64,000 bases of DNA from an uncultured Eubacteriales bacterium (GCA_949292905.1 CASFAV010000006.1:67456-131455); one strand, 5' to 3'. Numbered from the stretch's first letter, positions 2,595 to 64,000 are shown. A program made the numbers and translations. Notes: generated by a model from the letters alone, not told the origin.

Positions 2595-2722
2595 ATCTAC
2601 CTCCTCACGATATATATTATACTTGTCCGCGCGCGTGAATTCAAGAGTCAAACTTTCCGAAAAAACGAAAAAAACGTTCGTAAGGTATTGAAGACTGTTC
2701 CCCGTAGTGTTAAACTGTCGGT

Positions 2723-4638: not shown

Positions 4639-5655
4639 ATGATAGTAACGATCAAAAGGAACAGCAATCCCGTACAAATCGAGAGGCTTACGCGCTGGAT
4701 CAAGAATCTCGGTCTCGAATGTCACATGAGCGAAGGCGAAAAATCCACCGTCATCGGGCTCGTGGGAGACACGAGCAAGGTGGATATAGATCTTTTGAGG
4801 TCGCTGGAGATAGTGGAAGCGGTCACGCGGATACAGGAGCCTTACAAGAACGCGAACCGTAAATTCCACCCCGACGACACGATAGTCGACGTGAAAGGGG
4901 TGAAGTTTGGCGGCAGTCATTTCCAGATAATCGCGGGACCGTGCTCCATAGAGACCGAAAAACAGGTGATAGGCATCGCCGAAGCCGTCAAGGCGGCGGG
5001 CGCGTCGGTATTGCGCGGCGGCGCTTTCAAGCCGCGCACCTCGCCTTACGCCTTCCAGGGACTGGGTCTCAAAGGACTCGAGATACTTAAGAAAGCTTCC
5101 CGCGAAACGGGACTCCCCATCGTGACGGAGATAATGAGCGAGAAGTACATCGACGCATTCGCGGACGTCGACATCATACAGATAGGCGCGCGCAATATGC
5201 AGAATTTCGATCTTCTGAAAGCGGTAGGCAAACTGCGTAAGCCGATACTTCTGAAGCGCGGGCTCGCCAACACCATAGAGGAATGGCTCATGAGCGCCGA
5301 ATACATCATGTCCGAGGGCAACAACGAGATAATCCTCTGCGAACGCGGCATAAGGACTTTCGAGCCGTACACGAGGAATACGCTCGACCTTTCGGCGATA
5401 CCGCTTCTCAAGGAGAAAACGCATCTTCCCATCATCGTCGACCCTTCGCATGCGTCCGGGCTGTCGAGACTCGTCAAACCGTTGTCGCTCGCTTCGGTGG
5501 GCGTGGGCGCGGACGGGCTCATGATAGAAGTGCACAACGATCCGCAACACGCCCTTTGCGACGGAGCGCAGTCGCTTCGTCCCGATCAGTTCGCCGACGT
5601 CGTCAAAGCCGTCGACGTGATGCTTCCGCTCGTCAATAAGGAGAGAGACAAGTGA
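4639..5655 (+). CDS. aroF: 3-deoxy-7-phosphoheptulonate (DAHP) synthase, type I-beta, with N-terminal regulatory domain
   Basis: 338 aa with the LRGGAFKPRTSPYAFQGLG motif. The roughly 65-aa N-terminal extension is like the Thermotoga-type ferredoxin-like regulatory domain. Confidence 0.93.
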   Translation: MIVTIKRNSNPVQIERLTRWIKNLGLECHMSEGEKSTVIGLVGDTSKVDIDLLRSLEIVEAVTRIQEPYKNANRKFHPDDTIVDVKGVKFGGSHFQIIAGPCSIETEKQVIGIAEAVKAAGASVLRGGAFKPRTSPYAFQGLGLKGLEILKKASRETGLPIVTEIMSEKYIDAFADVDIIQIGARNMQNFDLLKAVGKLRKPILLKRGLANTIEEWLMSAEYIMSEGNNEIILCERGIRTFEPYTRNTLDLSAIPLLKEKTHLPIIVDPSHASGLSRLVKPLSLASVGVGADGLMIEVHNDPQHALCDGAQSLRPDQFADVVKAVDVMLPLVNKERDK

Positions 5656-6506
5656 AAATCGGTATCGTAGGACTGGGATTGATAGGCGGCTCGCTCGGCA
5701 GACAGATAATACGCAATACCTCGCACACGGTGTACGGCTACGACATTTCCGAAGACGCCATGCTTAAGGCGCAGATGCTGAACGCCTGTCACGAAAGGCT
5801 TGACGTCGAAGCGGAGCGGATGGATCTGGACTTGTTGATCGTGGCGCTCTGCCCCGAAGCCGCCATAAAAGTTATTCGCGAATTCGCGCCGCGCATGAAA
5901 AAGGGCTCGATAATCATAGATACCTGCGGCACAAAGCGCAAAGTCGTCGCGGCGATGGGCGCGTTGAAGGACGAATATCCCGACGTGGGCTTCGTCGGCG
6001 TGCACCCGATGGCGGGCAGGGAATACAGCGGCATATCTCATTCCACCGCCACTCTTTTCGAACACGCTTACATAATCCTCACTCCGGTACGTACGGATCT
6101 CGAAGCCGAAGAGAAGATAAGAGCGTTTTTCCTCGAGGCTGGTTGCGAGGGGATAACCACGGCGAGCGCCGCGACGCACGACAGGATGATAGCCTACACG
6201 TCGCAACTCGCTCACGTCGTTTCCTCCGCTTATATCCGCAATCCGCTTTCGGAGACTTACGTCGGCTTTTCCGCAGGAAGCTTCAGGGATCTGACGAGAG
6301 TGGCGAAACTGAACCCCGATATGTGGACGGAACTTTTCACCGAGAATAAGGACAATCTCGTCGAATGTATAGACGTACTTCAGCAGAAATTATCGGAATA
6401 CCGCGACGCGCTCGTAGCGGGCGATAACGCTAAACTTCACGCCGCGCTCAAGGAAGGAACGATGATGAAAGAGGCGGCGGAGAAATTGAGGAGAGACAGG
6501 AAATGA
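5652..6506 (+). CDS. tyrA: prephenate dehydrogenase
   Basis: GTG start overlapping the aroF stop. MKIGIVGLGLIGGSLG Rossmann motif and the GVHPMAG motif. Confidence 0.9.
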   Translation: MKIGIVGLGLIGGSLGRQIIRNTSHTVYGYDISEDAMLKAQMLNACHERLDVEAERMDLDLLIVALCPEAAIKVIREFAPRMKKGSIIIDTCGTKRKVVAAMGALKDEYPDVGFVGVHPMAGREYSGISHSTATLFEHAYIILTPVRTDLEAEEKIRAFFLEAGCEGITTASAATHDRMIAYTSQLAHVVSSAYIRNPLSETYVGFSAGSFRDLTRVAKLNPDMWTELFTENKDNLVECIDVLQQKLSEYRDALVAGDNAKLHAALKEGTMMKEAAEKLRRDRK

Positions 6507-11796: not shown

Positions 11797-11825
11797 GAAG
11801 AGTAAATGCTTTTTGCATTATAAAG

Positions 11826-11878
11826 GCGCAAACGGGAGCACTGCCCCCGCTTGCGGTCACAAAGTAAAAACAGCTCCG
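11826..11878 (-). repeat. second, decayed copy of the tRNA-Leu-proximal terminator/linker segment
   Basis: GCGCAAACGGGAGCACTGCCCCCGCTTGCGGTCACAAAGTAAAAACAGCTCCG aligns with 12083-12134 (GCGCAAACAGGTACACTGCCCCGATCTTCGGTGCCAATTAAAAACAGCTCCG). The period is about 257 nt. Confidence 0.7.
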
Positions 11879-11921
11879 AGAAGACGGGATAGAAATGCGT
11901 CGTGTATGTAAAATAAATCGG

Positions 11922-11947
11922 TTTGCCGAAGGCGGGGGCACTCGAAG
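11922..11947 (-). repeat. orphan, degenerate copy of the tRNA-Leu T-arm/acceptor 3' end
   Basis: The minus strand reads CTTCGAGTGCCCCCGCCTTCGGCAAA. The genuine tRNA 3' end reads GTTCAAGTCCCGCCTTCGGCACCA. Confidence 0.65.
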
Positions 11948-11959
11948 TTACGGAGAGGA

Positions 11960-12062
11960 GAGAAGGGGCGTGACAGGGCGCCTCGTAGCGCAGAGGTAAT
12001 ACGGAGCTTTACGTTGCCCTCGTCAGTTTTGCCGCAGGGCGGCAAAATAGTGCACCCTTTTT
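11960..12062 (-). repeat. tRNA-Leu-linked structured element (relative of the tRNA-Pro-linked cores)
   Basis: The minus strand reads AAAGGGTGCA, then hairpin TTTTGCCGC-CCT-GCGGCAAAA (12027-12047), then CTGACGAG (12019-12026), then ...GTAAAG. The TGACGAGGGC segment can pair with GCCCTGTCA further 3'. Confidence 0.55.
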
Positions 12063-12121
12063 GCTTGTACACTCAGTGTACGGCGCAAACAGGTACACTG
12101 CCCCGATCTTCGGTGCCAATT

Positions 12122-12153
12122 AAAAACAGCTCCGCGAACACGGAGCTGTTTTT
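12122..12153. terminator. bidirectional stem-loop terminator 3' of tRNA-Leu
   Basis: AAAAACAGCTCCG-CGAACA-CGGAGCTGTTTTT, with A/T runs on both sides. Confidence 0.8.
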
Positions 12154-12156
12154 AAT

Positions 12157-12243
12157 TGGTGCCGAAGGCGGGACTTGAACCCGCACGAGGTCATCCCTCA
12201 GCGGATTTTGAGTCCGCCGCGTCTGCCATTCCACCACTTCGGC
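12157..12243 (-). tRNA. tRNA-Leu (anticodon CAA), CCA encoded
   Basis: Hand-folded cloverleaf. Acceptor GCCGAAG/CTTCGGC, anticodon arm GCGGA-CTCAAAA-TCCGC, long variable arm, T-arm GCGGG-TTCAAGT-CCCGC, then ACCA. 87 nt in total. Confidence 0.93.
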
Positions 12244-13411: not shown

Positions 13412-13488
13412 CGAGGTGTAGCGCAGTTTGGTAGCGCGCTTGGTTCGGGACCAAGAGGTCGTGGGTTCGAATCCCGTCACCTCGACCA
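13412..13488 (+). tRNA. tRNA-Pro (anticodon CGG), CCA encoded
   Basis: Acceptor CGAGGTG/CACCTCG, D-arm GCGC-AGTTTGGTA-GCGC, anticodon arm CTTGG-TTCGGGA-CCAAG, T-loop TTCGAAT. The T-stem GTGGG/CCCGT has two G-U pairs. Confidence 0.9.
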
Positions 13489-13525
13489 CGCAAAAGGCAG
13501 CCGTCACGGTTGCCTTTTTGCGTGG
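13489..13525 (+). terminator. intrinsic terminator after tRNA-Pro
   Basis: GCAAAAGGCA-GCCGTCACGGT-TGCCTTTTTGC. Confidence 0.75.
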
Positions 13526-13564
13526 TCGGGGACGCGATAGCATACCCGTGCGCTTCAGCGCAAA

Positions 13565-13724
13565 GGGTGCGCAAGTTTGCGCAGGTAAGGCGCAAACCTG
13601 ACGAGCGTGAAAGTTGTACCTGTCCGTCAGGCGGGTGCAATCTTATACACCCTGCGTAAAAAATAACGGCTATAAATCAAATGCCGATATAACTAACGTA
13701 TCTGAGTTTCGGCGCATTTTGCGC
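13565..13724 (+). repeat. tRNA-Pro-linked 160-nt core, copy 1
   Basis: Aligns without gaps to 13832-13991; I count 8 mismatches. Paper fold: P1 AGGGTG 13564-69 / CACCCT 13648-53; P2 GTTTGCGC 13575-82 / GCGCAAAC 13590-97; P3 CCTGACG 13597-603 / CGTCAGG 13625-31. Confidence 0.9.
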
Positions 13725-13734
13725 CCGAGTGATG

Positions 13735-13750
13735 CCGTCACCTCGACCAC
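13735..13750 (+). repeat. orphan copy of the tRNA-Pro 3' end (CCGTCACCTCGACCAC)
   Basis: 16/16 identical to 13474-13489, which lies inside the intact tRNA-Pro gene. Confidence 0.85.
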
Positions 13751-13786
13751 AAAAAAAGGGCAGCATTTTCGCTGTCCTTTTTTTGT
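13751..13786 (+). terminator. second terminator-like stem-loop, following the orphan tRNA end
   Basis: AAAAAAAGGGCAGC-ATTTTC-GCTGTCCTTTTTTT. It has the same position and shape as 13489-13525 but a different sequence. Confidence 0.65.
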
Positions 13787-13831
13787 GCGTCGGACGAACG
13801 GGATAGCTTAACCCGTTTCGTATACGAAAGA

Positions 13832-13991
13832 GGGTGCGCAAGTTTGCGCAGGTAAGGCGCAAACCTGACGAGCGTGAAAGTTGTACCGGTCCGTCAGGCG
13901 GGCGCAACCTTATGCACCCTTCGTAAAAAATAACAGCTATAAATCAAATACCGATATAACTAACGTATCGGAGTTTCGGCGCATTTTGCGC
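13832..13991 (+). repeat. tRNA-Pro-linked 160-nt core, copy 2
   Basis: See copy 1. The offset is 267 nt and the first 56 nt are identical. Confidence 0.9.
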
Positions 13992-14077: not shown

Positions 14078-14587
14078 TTGCAAAAACGGGAAGAACCGCA
14101 TCCCTTCGGTTATATATTCGGTACCGATTCATATGCCGGCGGAACGGAAGTCGAGCAGTATTATTACGGTAGCAGTACTTCATACACGACGTCGACCACA
14201 TATTATATACCCGCGAGCCTACGAAGCGTCACTGTAACGGGCGGGAATATCCTGTACGGAGCGTTCCGTAATTGCTCGATGCTTACCTCGGTGACTATAG
14301 GGAACTCGGTCACAAGCATAGGAAGATATGCCTTCCGGAATTGCACGGGACTTACCTCGGTGGCGATAGGGCACTCGGTCACGAGCATAGGAAGTTATGC
14401 CTTTTGGGGGTGCACGGTTACTTCAGCCATATTCGAGGATACCGAGGGCTGGCAGGTGTCGTTGTTTAGCTCTTTCAGTAATTATACTTCGCTCGCGAGC
14501 ACCGATCTTGCGGACGCTTCCACTGCGGCTGAATATCTCATCAGGTCGACATACCACAGTTATTACTGGCGTAAGGTAGCGGCATAA
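14078..14587 (+). pseudogene. BspA-type leucine-rich-repeat protein, apparent C-terminal remnant
   Basis: Repeats of the form IPASLRSVTV..AFRNCSMLTSVTIGNSVTSIGRYAFRNCTGLTSVAIGHSVTSIGSYAFWGC. The ORF opens on TTG with no Shine-Dalgarno site, no signal peptide and no ATG for about 65 codons. Proteins of this family are normally large and secreted. Confidence 0.55.
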
Positions 14588-32391: not shown

Positions 32392-32668
32392 AACAACCAT
32401 AAACCGTTGACGCAGAGTAGTAACTCGAGGGAAGCGCAGAGAGATATCCGGTACGGTGTGACGGAGAAGCGGAATCCGAGCGAATGGACTGCCGAGGGTC
32501 GGTGCGAACGCATCAGTCAGTAGTGCCGGACGGGAACTCCCGTAACAGAGTCAGGATATGACGGTATCCGTGAATTAAGGTCGGACTCGAGGTCCGGCGA
32601 AGTCGGGTGGCAACACGAAACGATATGATTCGTCCCGACGCAGTAACAGTCTGCGTCGGGATTTTATT
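32392..32668 (+). promoter_or_regulatory. T-box riboswitch, Trp specifier (UGG)
   Basis: Stem I elements AGTAGTA, AGAGA and GGTGTGA. Specifier GAA-TGG-A (TGG at 32485-32487). T-box sequence AAGTCGGGTGGCAACACG (32600-32617). Terminator TCCCGACGCAG / CTGCGTCGGGA plus a T-run (32633-32668). Confidence 0.85.
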
Positions 32669-32707: not shown

Positions 32708-34087
32708 ATGACCAAAACGACGGACATTCCCTACAAGATCTATTTAACCGAAGACGAAATGCCGCGTAGCTGGTACAACGTCCGTGCCGATATGCCGGAA
32801 AAGCACGATCCGATGCTCAATCCCGCGACGCTCGAACCCGCGACGAGAGAGGAACTCGAGAAGGTATTTTGTTCCGCGGTGGTGGAGCAGGAGCTCAACC
32901 AGACGGACAGATACATAGAGATCCCCGATGGCATAAGGAATTTCTACAAGATGTACAGACCTTCGCCCCTGGTAAGAGCGTATTGCCTTGAGAAAGCGCT
33001 CGGCACCCCCGCGGAGATATACTACAAATTCGAGGGCAACAACACTTCGGGGTCGCATAAGCTCAATTCGGCGGCGGCGCAGGCATATTACGCCAAGCAG
33101 GAGGGACTCACCTCGCTCACTACCGAAACGGGAGCGGGACAATGGGGTACCGCGTTGTCGATGGCGTGCGCCTTCTTCGGACTCGACCTGACCGTATTCA
33201 TGGTAAAGGTCAGCAGCGAGCAGAAGCCGCACCGCAGAGAGGTCATGCGCACCTACGGCGCCAAGGTCATACCTTCGCCTTCGGACACCACGGAATGCGG
33301 CAGGGCGATACTCAAAGCACATCCCGGAACGGGCGGCTCGCTCGGATGCGCCATTTCCGAAGCCGTAGAAGTGGCGGTATCCACTCCCGGCTGTCGTTAC
33401 GGTCTGGGCTCCGTACTCGATCACGTTCTCCTGCATCAGTCTATAATAGGCTGCGAGAGCAAGATAGCCCTCGACAAGTACGGCGTACACCCCGATATGA
33501 TCATCGGTTGCGCGGGCGGCGGCTCCAACCTCGGCGGACTTATCAGTCCGTTTATGGGGGAGAAACTGCGCGGCGAACGCGATTACCGTTTCATCGCCGT
33601 CGAGCCCGTTTCCTGCCCTTCGCTCACGAGAGGCAAATACCTTTACGACTTCGGCGATACAGGCAAGATAACTCCTCTCATGAAAATGTATACCCTGGGT
33701 TGCGACTTCATACCCTCCGCCAATCACGCGGGCGGGCTACGTTACCACGGAATGAGCGCGGTGATAAGCAAACTTTATCACGACGGATTTATAGAAGCGA
33801 GAAGCGTGGAACAGACCTCCGTTTTCAAAGCCGCGGAAGCTTTCGCGCGTACCGAAGGCATACTGCCCGCCCCCGAATCCTCTCACGCCATACGCGTGGC
33901 GATAGACGAGGCGTTGAAGTGTAAGGAGACCGGCGAAAAGAAGGTGATACTTTTCGGACTTACCGGAACGGGGTATTTCGATATGACGGCGTATAAGAAA
34001 TTCAACGACGGCGAGATGAGCGACTATGTCCCCACCGACGAGGAGATAGAGAAGAGCGTCGCGCAACTCGAGCCTTACAACAAATAA
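32708..34087 (+). CDS. trpB: TrpB-like PLP enzyme, TrpB2 (long) subfamily tryptophan synthase beta chain
   Basis: 459 aa. The N-terminal extension (...EMPRSWYNVRADMPEKHDP) is typical of TrpB2. Motifs HKLNSA (PLP lysine) and GCAGGGSN. Confidence 0.88.
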   Translation: MTKTTDIPYKIYLTEDEMPRSWYNVRADMPEKHDPMLNPATLEPATREELEKVFCSAVVEQELNQTDRYIEIPDGIRNFYKMYRPSPLVRAYCLEKALGTPAEIYYKFEGNNTSGSHKLNSAAAQAYYAKQEGLTSLTTETGAGQWGTALSMACAFFGLDLTVFMVKVSSEQKPHRREVMRTYGAKVIPSPSDTTECGRAILKAHPGTGGSLGCAISEAVEVAVSTPGCRYGLGSVLDHVLLHQSIIGCESKIALDKYGVHPDMIIGCAGGGSNLGGLISPFMGEKLRGERDYRFIAVEPVSCPSLTRGKYLYDFGDTGKITPLMKMYTLGCDFIPSANHAGGLRYHGMSAVISKLYHDGFIEARSVEQTSVFKAAEAFARTEGILPAPESSHAIRVAIDEALKCKETGEKKVILFGLTGTGYFDMTAYKKFNDGEMSDYVPTDEEIEKSVAQLEPYNK

Positions 34088-62101: not shown

Positions 62102-62177
62102 GGGGGTATAGCTCAGTTGGTAGAGCACCTGCTTTGCAAGCAGGGGGTCTGCGGTTCGAATCCGCATATCTCCACCA
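62102..62177 (+). tRNA. tRNA-Ala (anticodon TGC), CCA encoded
   Basis: GGGGGTATAGCTCAGTTGGTAGAGC..CTTTGCAAG.. with the G3:U70 identity pair. Confidence 0.93.
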
Positions 62178-62186
62178 ATCGGATAT

Positions 62187-62263
62187 AGGCTGGTAGCTCA
62201 GCAGGTTAGAGCACGCGCCTGATAAGCGCGAGGTCGGTGGTTCGAGTCCACTTCAGCCTACCA
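62187..62263 (+). tRNA. tRNA-Ile (anticodon GAT), CCA encoded
   Basis: AGGCTGGTAGCTCAGCAGGTTAGAGC..CCTGATAAG..GGTTCGAGTCC. Confidence 0.92.
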
Positions 62264-62456
62264 GAACCGCGTAAGCGGCGAACTCCTGCACCTTGACAAC
62301 TGCATAAAGAGTAGACATAAAATGATCTTAAAATATCTAGAAATAACGTTTCAGAGTAATACGAATTGAACGTAGAAACTAGCTGGAATAAATTGCGAAG
62401 ATATTTTGCTGAGGATTAAACCGAGATAATGTTTCTTTAATAGAGAATCAAGACGA

Positions 62457-64000
<1,544 letters not shown>

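Follow-up and report, generated by a model that had tools for sequence, protein, structure and literature searches.

The 64,000-nucleotide stretch of DNA analyzed here (hereafter the window; uncultured Eubacteriales bacterium, GCA_949292905.1 CASFAV010000006.1:67456-131455) carries three copies of a hairpin-bearing motif, one behind tRNA-Leu(caa) and two in tandem behind tRNA-Pro(cgg), these two tRNA genes being divergent with an alpha/beta-hydrolase gene between them. Copies in other genomes place all three in one family of units found at the 3' ends of tRNA genes. We tentatively interpret the motif as the self-folding core of miniature non-autonomous integrative elements, whose hairpins would serve as cis signals, and we give this interpretation a probability of about 0.45. 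The family occurs in a clade of uncultured gut Clostridia related to Ca. Stercoripulliclostridium and is apparently undescribed, a search of the full-text literature having found no description of such elements.

A family of units behind tRNA genes

The preliminary description of this DNA, made from the sequence of the window alone, had reported a motif shared by a Leu-linked and a Pro-linked element and had taken the two elements to be homologous. All of the features that it listed for them are present where it placed them (Table 1). At the level of sequence the resemblance is marginal (blastn, 49 nt, 69% identity, E 0.11), so that the finding hung on evidence from outside the window; the box CTGACGAG occurs six times in the window against 2.0 expected. 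At least 18 copies, 17 of them distinct, were assembled from 10 sources (the window and nine other loci). A covariance model (R2) built from ten copies of L053, L069, L146, L148, L149, L150 and L153, with the window and its close relatives excluded, was scanned across the window and returned exactly three copies, at the scores given in Table 1 and with E-values that are approximate owing to a shortened calibration; the next match had an E-value of 0.14. The recovery of the window copies by this model, together with a unit plan shared at five identified tRNA species and two further tRNA 3' ends, establishes that the Leu- and Pro-linked elements belong to one family, as had been proposed. The third copy of the motif (13829-13872), in tandem with the Pro copy, had not been listed.

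Among the matches listed from a scan of species-representative genomes, most were due to chance, and the true members were L031, a metagenome-assembled genome (MAG) of Ca. Stercoripulliclostridium pullicola that is syntenic with the window, and L053 and L069, both MAGs of uncultured Clostridia. A tighter pattern applied to metagenome contigs yielded the members L146, L148, L149 and L150, and homologues of the neighboring hydrolase led to L151 (94% identical protein), L153 (61%) and L155-157 (57%); at the more distant hydrolase homologues (L158-L166) no element was found. The host tRNAs of the copies are Leu(caa), Pro(cgg), Gly(gcc), Lys(ctt) and Ser(tga), in addition to two tRNA ends that are cut by contig edges. 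Every copy has the orientation of its tRNA and lies directly behind either the tRNA or another unit.

The units are approximately 200-270 bp long and non-coding. Each starts directly behind a tRNA or behind a short copy of a tRNA 3' end and proceeds through a terminator, an inverted repeat (IRL), the hairpins P1/Pa and Pb, the box CTGAYGAG, a spacer, the word (TT)CGAGTKAT and a direct repeat of the tRNA end. The terminator is the unit's own intrinsic hairpin with flanking A- and T-runs, and each unit is followed in turn by a terminator, which is either that of the next unit or the native one. The IRL matches, with imperfections, the reverse complement of the host tRNA's T-stem and acceptor 3' strand, ending ..CGGGAT, and the tRNA end, terminator and IRL together make up an imperfect palindrome of 19-36 bp (H0). 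In nine of nine elements the IRL was most complementary to its own tRNA end when compared with those of other tRNA types, so that it tracks the identity of the target. The spacer differs in sequence among tRNA types and measures about 62-76 nt in most of them and 117 nt in Pro. At the right end, the T-loop-like TTCGAGTKAT is followed by a direct repeat of 9-18 nt of the tRNA end (18 nt in L069 and in L149, 16 in the window Pro unit, 15 in the Lys unit of L053 and 13 in the window Leu unit), these repeats being shorter, degenerate or missing at some array ends. Both the direct repeats and the tRNA-specific inverted repeat had been missed in the preliminary description. The host tRNAs are intact (53-71 bits with the Rfam tRNA model), because the element supplies the tRNA end that it replaces as well as a terminator, and in L069 the native terminator lies beyond the right repeat, as expected for an insertion.

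Three covarying hairpins and the strand that folds

From the Leu and Pro copies it had been argued that the hairpin now called Pb is kept by selection on structure, its stem differing in sequence while pairing is retained, and this argument held when more copies were compared. In the model-fitted alignment of the 17 distinct copies, 94.9% of Pb cells are paired and compensatory changes are present at six of its eight pairs. The strand pairs include UUUUGCCGC/GCGGCAAAA, GUUUGCGC/GCGCAAAC, GUUCGCGC/GCGCGAAC, GUUCGC/GCGAAC, GUUUGCC/GGCAAAC, GUUUUCGC/GCGGAAAC and UUUUUGACGGC/GCCGUCAAAAA. Loop length ranges from 3 to 10 nt, a variation that speaks against a palindromic dimer site of fixed spacing on duplex DNA.

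Just upstream of Pb, and separated from it by 0-2 nt, lies a second covarying helix, P1, in which GGGUGC(NN) pairs with an upstream (NN)GYRYACCC and encloses a variable hairpin, Pa (for example GCGC-UUCA-GCGC, UUUCG-UUCA-CGAAA, UAUGC-UUCA-GCAUA or GUACAC-UGA-GUGUAC). In L153, P1 and Pa merge into one continuous stem of 19 bp. The word AAAGGGTGC, previously singled out as a flanking block conserved in sequence, is indeed present, but it is not unpaired: it forms the 3' strand of this P1/Pa helix. Two further observations concern the same region. The P1/Pa variants GCGC-UUCA-GCGC and UUUCG-UWYA-CGAAA are adjacent in the Pro array (13532-13875) and occur in the reverse order in the Gly array of L053 (1956-2241). 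A 6-bp inverted repeat about a 2-nt center (GCGCAA-GT-TTGCGC) spans the boundary between P1 and Pb at 13570-13583 of the window; it has equivalents in the Gly and Ser types and none in the Leu, Lys and L069 types, and it makes alternative pairings or a palindromic site on duplex DNA possible.

All three hairpins (H0, P1/Pa and Pb) keep their pairing despite changes in sequence. With the MAFFT alignment alone, 80.2% of cells are paired, 13 of 22 pairs have changed on both sides, and the covariation score is 0.343 against 0.142 in shuffled alignments and 0.03-0.10 in slid controls. The model-fitted alignment gives 86.5% of cells paired, again 13 of 22 pairs changed on both sides, and a score of 0.403 against 0.161 when shuffled and 0.03-0.11 when slid; in neither case did any of 500 shuffles reach the observed value, figures to be read with the caveat that the sequences are related, that about nine lineages are independent and that the fitted alignment is biased towards the model. 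Within P1, there is alternation between C-G and U.G (7 vs 7 copies) and between A-U and G.U (12 vs 5), and the core is more stable on the tRNA-sense than on the antisense strand in 15 of 17 copies, by a mean of 3.5 kcal/mol. Taken together, the G.U alternation and the greater stability indicate that the strand that folds is the tRNA-sense strand. It may do so as RNA or as single-stranded DNA, as the preliminary description had allowed.

The box CTGAYGAG (CUGACGAG or CUGAUGAG) stands directly 3' of Pb in 17 of 18 copies, with CUGGCGAA in its place in L153. The invariant nucleotides GGGUGC, the A before Pb and CUGAYGAG are unpaired or lie at junctions. An eight-nucleotide CUGAYGAG directly 3' of a hairpin recalls the CUGANGA(G) box of a hammerhead-type self-cleaving ribozyme, with Pb as stem I, all the more as its sole variable position (C/U) corresponds to N7. 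No ribozyme model matched in the window (E<=10) or at six further loci (E<=5), however, and the copies have neither a stem II followed by GAAA nor a stem III, the sequence past the box being unconserved; most of them also lack the A15.1-U16.1 pair and the single H17 at the P1-Pb junction. The missing GAAA box, stems II and III, cleavage-site geometry and Rfam match essentially exclude a hammerhead. More generally, the comparison with Rfam that the preliminary description had called for, in case the motif belonged to a known family, produced no such family: in Rfam 15 only tRNAs passed the gathering threshold and everything else fell far below it (same E-value limits), and the long palindrome drew only spurious matches to miRNA precursors.

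Several other candidate structures and blocks did not extend to the family. The pairing of the CTGAC block with a downstream GTCAG or GTCA, noted earlier for both elements, is real in the window, but it is complete only in the Pro copies, those of the window and of L151, and is limited to the 4-nt GTCA in the Leu-type copies (window, L031 and L151); a helix between CUGAYG and the inverted repeat appears in the Pro and Lys folds and is missing from the Gly, Ser and Leu types. The downstream block G(T)AAAG is likewise found in the window, yet it is absent from about one-third of copies and cannot serve as a family feature. A closing helix between AGGGTGC and a downstream GCACCCT forms in the window Pro copies and not in other members, AGGGTGC pairing instead with the upstream GCRYACCC. 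Finally, Pb was rejected as an intrinsic terminator because it is followed by CTGAYGAG and no T-run, and terminator scans flag only the unit-initial hairpins.

A lone module of 38 nt resembling Pb (CAA-GTTTGGC-TCT-GCCAAAC-CTAATGAG) was also met in L148 (1022-1066, minus strand), upstream of tRNA-Ser(tga) (852-940). It scores 17.8 bits (E 0.009) with model R1 and follows nucleotide 12 of a duplicated 5' fragment of tRNA-Ser; the region upstream of this tRNA is duplicated as well, and the module is absent from the related contig L150.

Proposed mobility of the units and competing explanations

The genomes of the window, L151 and L031 are approximately 87-94% identical and differ in the number of units that they carry at the same sites, as tRNA-integrated islands do in presence or absence at one site. 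At the Pro site the window has two units and L151 has one, and L031 has no more than the first ~95 nt of a unit. At the Leu site there is one unit and a stub in the window, two units and a stub in L151, and two units in L031, beyond which a TIR/GNAT gene insert follows. The truncated second Leu unit of the window resembles the first over 63 nt (blastn, 78% identity) and has a junction identical to that in L151, and the second Pro unit, which is 86% identical to the first over 238 nt (blastn), ends at the same right junction as the single copy of L151. In L155-157 the tRNA-Leu is followed by a terminator only, that is, by an empty site, and L153 carries a diverged Leu unit, distinguished by its variant box. 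Two side observations belong to the Leu site. In L031, TIR-domain and GNAT acetyltransferase genes occupy 4719-6384, just past the array, where the window and L151 have a YjbR gene, and they may represent a small defence-type insertion at the array end. In L155 (~2690-2700, minus strand), about 60 nt past the empty tRNA-Leu and after the terminator, TTCGGCATCA repeats 10 of the last 12 nt of the tRNA, which may be an old scar or chance.

We suggest that site-specific recombination at the duplicated tRNA end accounts for the insertion, multiplication and loss of the units. The most likely enzyme would be a tyrosine-type integrase acting in trans and encoded elsewhere in the genome; such integrases classically leave direct repeats of 13-18 nt of a tRNA 3' end. 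With tRNA-integrated genomic islands and cis-mobilizable elements (CIMEs), the units share the site at the tRNA 3' end, the fixed orientation, the 13-18-nt direct repeats, the intact tRNA and tandem accretion, and CIMEs too have att sites without an integrase of their own. They differ in that described islands and CIMEs measure kilobases and bear genes, whereas the present units are 200-270 bp, are non-coding and have, in addition, covarying hairpins in a conserved core and an inverted repeat of the att site that is specific to the target; moreover, no cognate autonomous element or integrase was found among the open reading frames (ORFs) near the copies. The units also resemble miniature inverted-repeat transposable elements (MITEs) and REPINs, which are short, non-coding, hairpin-forming and multi-copy, rely on a protein from another locus and are often situated just behind genes. 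Unlike these, the units keep strictly to one orientation at tRNA 3' ends and adapt their ends to each tRNA; in contrast to MITEs, their repeats are derived from the target and are 9-18 nt long rather than a short duplication of fixed length, and their two ends (the terminator A-run at the left and CGAGTKAT at the right) do not form an inverted repeat.

The units could instead be inert scars of larger tRNA-integrated islands, their inverted repeats maintained by template-switch "quasipalindrome correction" and their tandems arising by unequal crossing-over. Truncated units and units without a terminal repeat are common, the search for helper genes near the copies was negative, palindromes are textbook hot spots for templated mutation, and L031 shows a deletion between two similar GCGCA.TTTGCGC words, all of which would suit this explanation. 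Scars would nevertheless not be expected to show the same plan and core behind at least five tRNA species in several genomes, with ends matched to the respective tRNA. Correction should also have removed the stable G.U positions and bulges, which persist, and the unpaired boxes CTGAYGAG and TTCGAGTKAT are conserved too. Furthermore, the units are conserved above neighboring coding DNA: in the comparison of the window with L151, identity is 98.3% for the Pro unit, 94.5% for the hydrolase gene and 91.5-94% for the flanks, a difference that indicates constraint or recent exchange. For these reasons we consider it quite unlikely that the units are scars.

On the interpretation that we prefer, mini-elements mobilized in trans, the hairpins and CTGAYGAG would be cis-acting recognition signals of the element, most likely read on the tRNA-sense strand as single-stranded DNA, and H0 would rebuild a duplex copy of the tRNA-gene target. 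Folded palindromes that rebuild a target duplex are found in the attC sites of integrons and in the attP hairpin of CTX phage. As in attC and CTX attP(+), the palindrome here is imperfect and bulged, its structure is kept over its sequence and folding is strand-specific; integron arrays, too, consist of short units with a palindrome each, and the likeness would extend to the rebuilding of a target-like duplex if the units are indeed used in single-stranded form. There are clear differences nonetheless. The R''/R' consensus of attC, which we take to be RYYYAAC/GTTRRRY, is lacking, the palindrome feet being derived from the tRNA (ATCCCGT.. / ..ACGGGAT), and the foot of Pb (GTT..AAC) has the order opposite to that consensus. 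Neither IntI nor attI nor a Pc promoter, as in integrons and clusters of attC sites lacking integrases (CALIN), accompanies the arrays, which begin at a tRNA gene. The target is a tRNA end and not attI or dif, and the palindrome doubles as a transcription terminator.

A second explanation of the core (P1/Pa, Pb and CUGAYGAG) is that it is a small structured non-coding RNA carried as cargo by the mini-element and transcribed by read-through from the tRNA promoter or from an unrecognized promoter of its own. Such an RNA could act in trans or on the tRNA transcript, for instance by pairing of the inverted repeat with the tRNA 3' end. The covariation of three helices with G.U alternation on the sense strand, the invariant unpaired or junction nucleotides, of a kind seen in many RNAs that bind proteins or ligands, the conservation of the unit above its flanks and the terminator behind each unit would all be accommodated. 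On the other hand, the core begins 10-20 nt past a strong canonical terminator, and no sigma-70-like promoter was found upstream of it in the window, L053 or L069; the promoters in the scanned loci are those of the tRNAs and the hydrolase, in addition to a weak one, directed away from the core, in the spacer of L069. No Rfam family corresponds to it. The tRNA-specific palindrome straddles the terminator T-run, an odd arrangement for an RNA element, since the base of H0 lies beyond the T-run and could fold as RNA only after read-through, and a spacer that is kept in length and not in sequence is better suited to an architecture of DNA. We regard a non-coding RNA as the main rival, though a rather unlikely one. 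Because the core has no promoter and lies behind a terminator, because the outer palindrome extends past the T-run and would seldom be included in RNA, and because target-rebuilding palindromes have precedents in attC and CTX attP, we think that single-stranded DNA is more likely than a free-standing RNA gene, although this is the weakest step of our interpretation.

A bolder and, in our estimation, unlikely extension is that these non-coding units of ~200 nt represent a novel type of minimal mobile DNA that reaches tRNA 3' ends in the form of folded single strands. The palindrome could then be a self-made duplex att site or a guide complementary to the target tRNA, similar to a primer-binding site, and P1, Pb and CTGAYGAG could form the handle for a recombinase or nicking enzyme, which would amount to an attC/CTX-like system in Firmicutes aimed at tRNA genes. 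In another proposal, the hairpins and CTGAYGAG would constitute a rolling-circle or transfer origin (oriT or single-strand origin) for a helper relaxase or Rep protein, so that the mini-element would consist of an att site and an origin and would be copied as single-stranded DNA from tandem arrays, as happens with CTX phage and the RS1 satellite. At nic sites, too, strand-specific hairpins precede a conserved single-stranded box, the oriTs of the MOBQ, MOBP and MOBF families having a hairpin 5' of nic, and tandem arrays are frequent. The antisense strand even offers a hairpin with TTGCGCACCCTT, loosely similar to what we take to be the MOBQ nic region, AAGTGCGCCCT. This word, however, lies on the less stably folding strand and falls within helix P1, not in a single-stranded tail; neither a relaxase nor a Rep gene was detected near the copies, plasmid and phage collections gave no match, and a replicon of 200 nt would need all of its functions in trans. 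An origin therefore seems very unlikely.

A number of points weigh against mini-elements mobilized in trans. Pfam searches of 27 ORFs of the window and 10 ORFs beside the copies in L031, L069 and L153 detected no gene for a recombinase, relaxase or Rep protein, and the search for a full-size relative with the same ends was negative (distant blastn gave no match in phage and plasmid collections, and pattern scans of viral contigs gave chance matches in coding DNA or none), so that mobilization in trans is presumed. Neither an excised circle nor a strictly isogenic empty site was seen among the collected assembled loci; the hydrolase that flanks the empty Leu site shares only 57% identity, and unequal crossing-over alone could suffice for the changes in tandem copy number. 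Contrary to a simple integrase model, the window Pro array lacks a terminal tRNA-end repeat (the second unit ends ..CATTTTGCGC at 13991), and the far ends of arrays mostly consist of a truncated unit that stops at a TTTGC[GC][GC] word. Such stops occur at 11825 and 13991 of the window, L031 ~2680, L146 ~310, L053 ~2300 and L153 ~1416, with a possible further one in the flank of L069 (~4090), as at the junctions of ..CCCGTTTGCGCC with TTTATAATGC and of ..CATTTTGCGC with TCCTTCTTC; they could reflect frequent deletion at the feet of hairpins or recombination at a second site. In addition, hairpins are unusual in integrase arm regions, G.U-tolerant folding of the sense strand fits RNA at least as well as single-stranded DNA, and the sample is small (17 distinct copies, approximately nine independent lineages, metagenome assemblies throughout).

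As a separate observation, the region beside the Leu units of L153 (8-1153) encodes a protein with a weak SegE-type GIY-YIG match (E ~5e-4, below the Pfam cut-off) as well as a small helix-turn-helix ORF (GerE / sigma-70 region 4-like); the contig ends there.

If they are mini-elements mobilized in trans, the units would be the smallest site-specific integrative elements known to us, and an integrase att site with a few structured signals would be able to live as a selfish unit, much as MITEs do with a transposase. Beyond integrons and Xer-exploiting phages, they are also candidate sites of folded-strand recombination. With three covarying hairpins, two conserved boxes and a target-matched palindrome, they offer a compact, alignable substrate with which a tRNA-end recombinase could be found and tested in poorly known gut Clostridia. 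For annotation, several tRNA genes owe their working terminators to the units, and the tRNA-fragment repeats that they generate would be taken for island borders by island-finding software.

Positions in the window and genomic setting

The window is a piece of ordinary chromosome with shikimate-pathway and other housekeeping genes, in which the Leu and Pro units are placed as listed in Table 1. In the Leu unit, the terminator hairpin is continued by the IRL, giving a long palindrome to which the tRNA end also belongs.

Table 1. Coordinates of the tRNA-linked units and their parts in the 64,000-nucleotide window.
Feature	Position	Strand	Basis or remark
tRNA-Leu(caa), host of the Leu-linked element	12157-12243	minus	ARAGORN; Rfam tRNA 55.8 bits
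Leu left direct repeat, last 16 nt of tRNA-Leu, CCCGCCTTCGGCACCA	12172-12157	minus	repeat search
Leu intrinsic terminator, left end of unit, AAAAACAGCTCCG-TGTTCG-CGGAGCTGTTTTT	12122-12153	minus	read from sequence
Leu IRL, imperfect reverse complement of tRNA-Leu 3' end, ATTGGCACCGAAGATCGGGG	12101-12120	minus	read from sequence
Leu structured core	12016-12106	minus	model R2, 53.3 bits, E 8.6e-14; pair counts
Leu P1/Pa long hairpin	12100-12048	minus	AAAGGGTGC (12060-12052) is its 3' strand
Leu Pb hairpin TTTTGCCGC-CCT-GCGGCAAAA	12047-12027	minus	
Leu box CTGACGAG	12026-12019	minus	
Leu spacer, 72 nt	11947-12018	minus	comparison of downstream parts, all copies
Leu right end, T-loop-like TTCGAGTGCC	11946-11937	minus	
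Leu right direct repeat CCCGCCTTCGGCA of tRNA-Leu 3' end	11936-11924	minus	
Truncated second Leu unit (half terminator, IRL, start of P1), ending ..CCCGTTTGCGCC	11825-11923	minus	
tRNA-Pro(cgg), host of the Pro-linked array	13412-13488	plus	ARAGORN; Rfam 67.6 bits
Pro left direct repeat, last 16 nt of tRNA-Pro	13473-13488	plus	repeat search
Pro unit 1 terminator	13490-13521	plus	
Pro unit 1 IRL GCGTGGTCGGGGACGCGAT, complementary to tRNA-Pro 3' end	13520-13538	plus	
Pro unit 1 structured core, P1/Pa included	13532-13608	plus	model R2, 68.6 bits, E 2.7e-18
Pro unit 1 AAAGGGTGC	13562-13570	plus	
Pro unit 1 Pb GTTTGCGC-AGGTAAG-GCGCAAAC	13575-13597	plus	
Pro unit 1 box CTGACGAG	13598-13605	plus	
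Pro unit 1 spacer, right end and repeat	13609-13750	plus	
Pro unit 1 right-end CGAGTGATG	13726-13734	plus	
Second copy of tRNA-Pro 3' end	13735-13750	plus	1 mismatch over 16 nt searched
Pro unit 2, whole (terminator, IRL, core, spacer)	13751-13991	plus	
Pro unit 2 terminator	13751-13787	plus	
Pro unit 2 core	13798-13875	plus	model R2, 59.4 bits, E 1.5e-15
Pro unit 2 Pb	13842-13864	plus	
Pro unit 2 box CTGACGAG	13865-13872	plus	

The end of the window (62102-64000) holds a partial rRNA operon, made up of tRNA-Ala(tgc), tRNA-Ile(gat) and the first 1.5 kb of the 23S rRNA gene, and neither of these two tRNAs has an element behind it. A T-box leader at 32398-32640 (Rfam, 94.4 bits against a threshold of 93) lies upstream of an ORF at 32708-34087. 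Just past the Pro array, an ORF at 14078-14587 encodes leucine-rich repeats of the BspA type, and the DNA at 14261-14417 contains internal repeats of ~90 nt (blastn self-matches).

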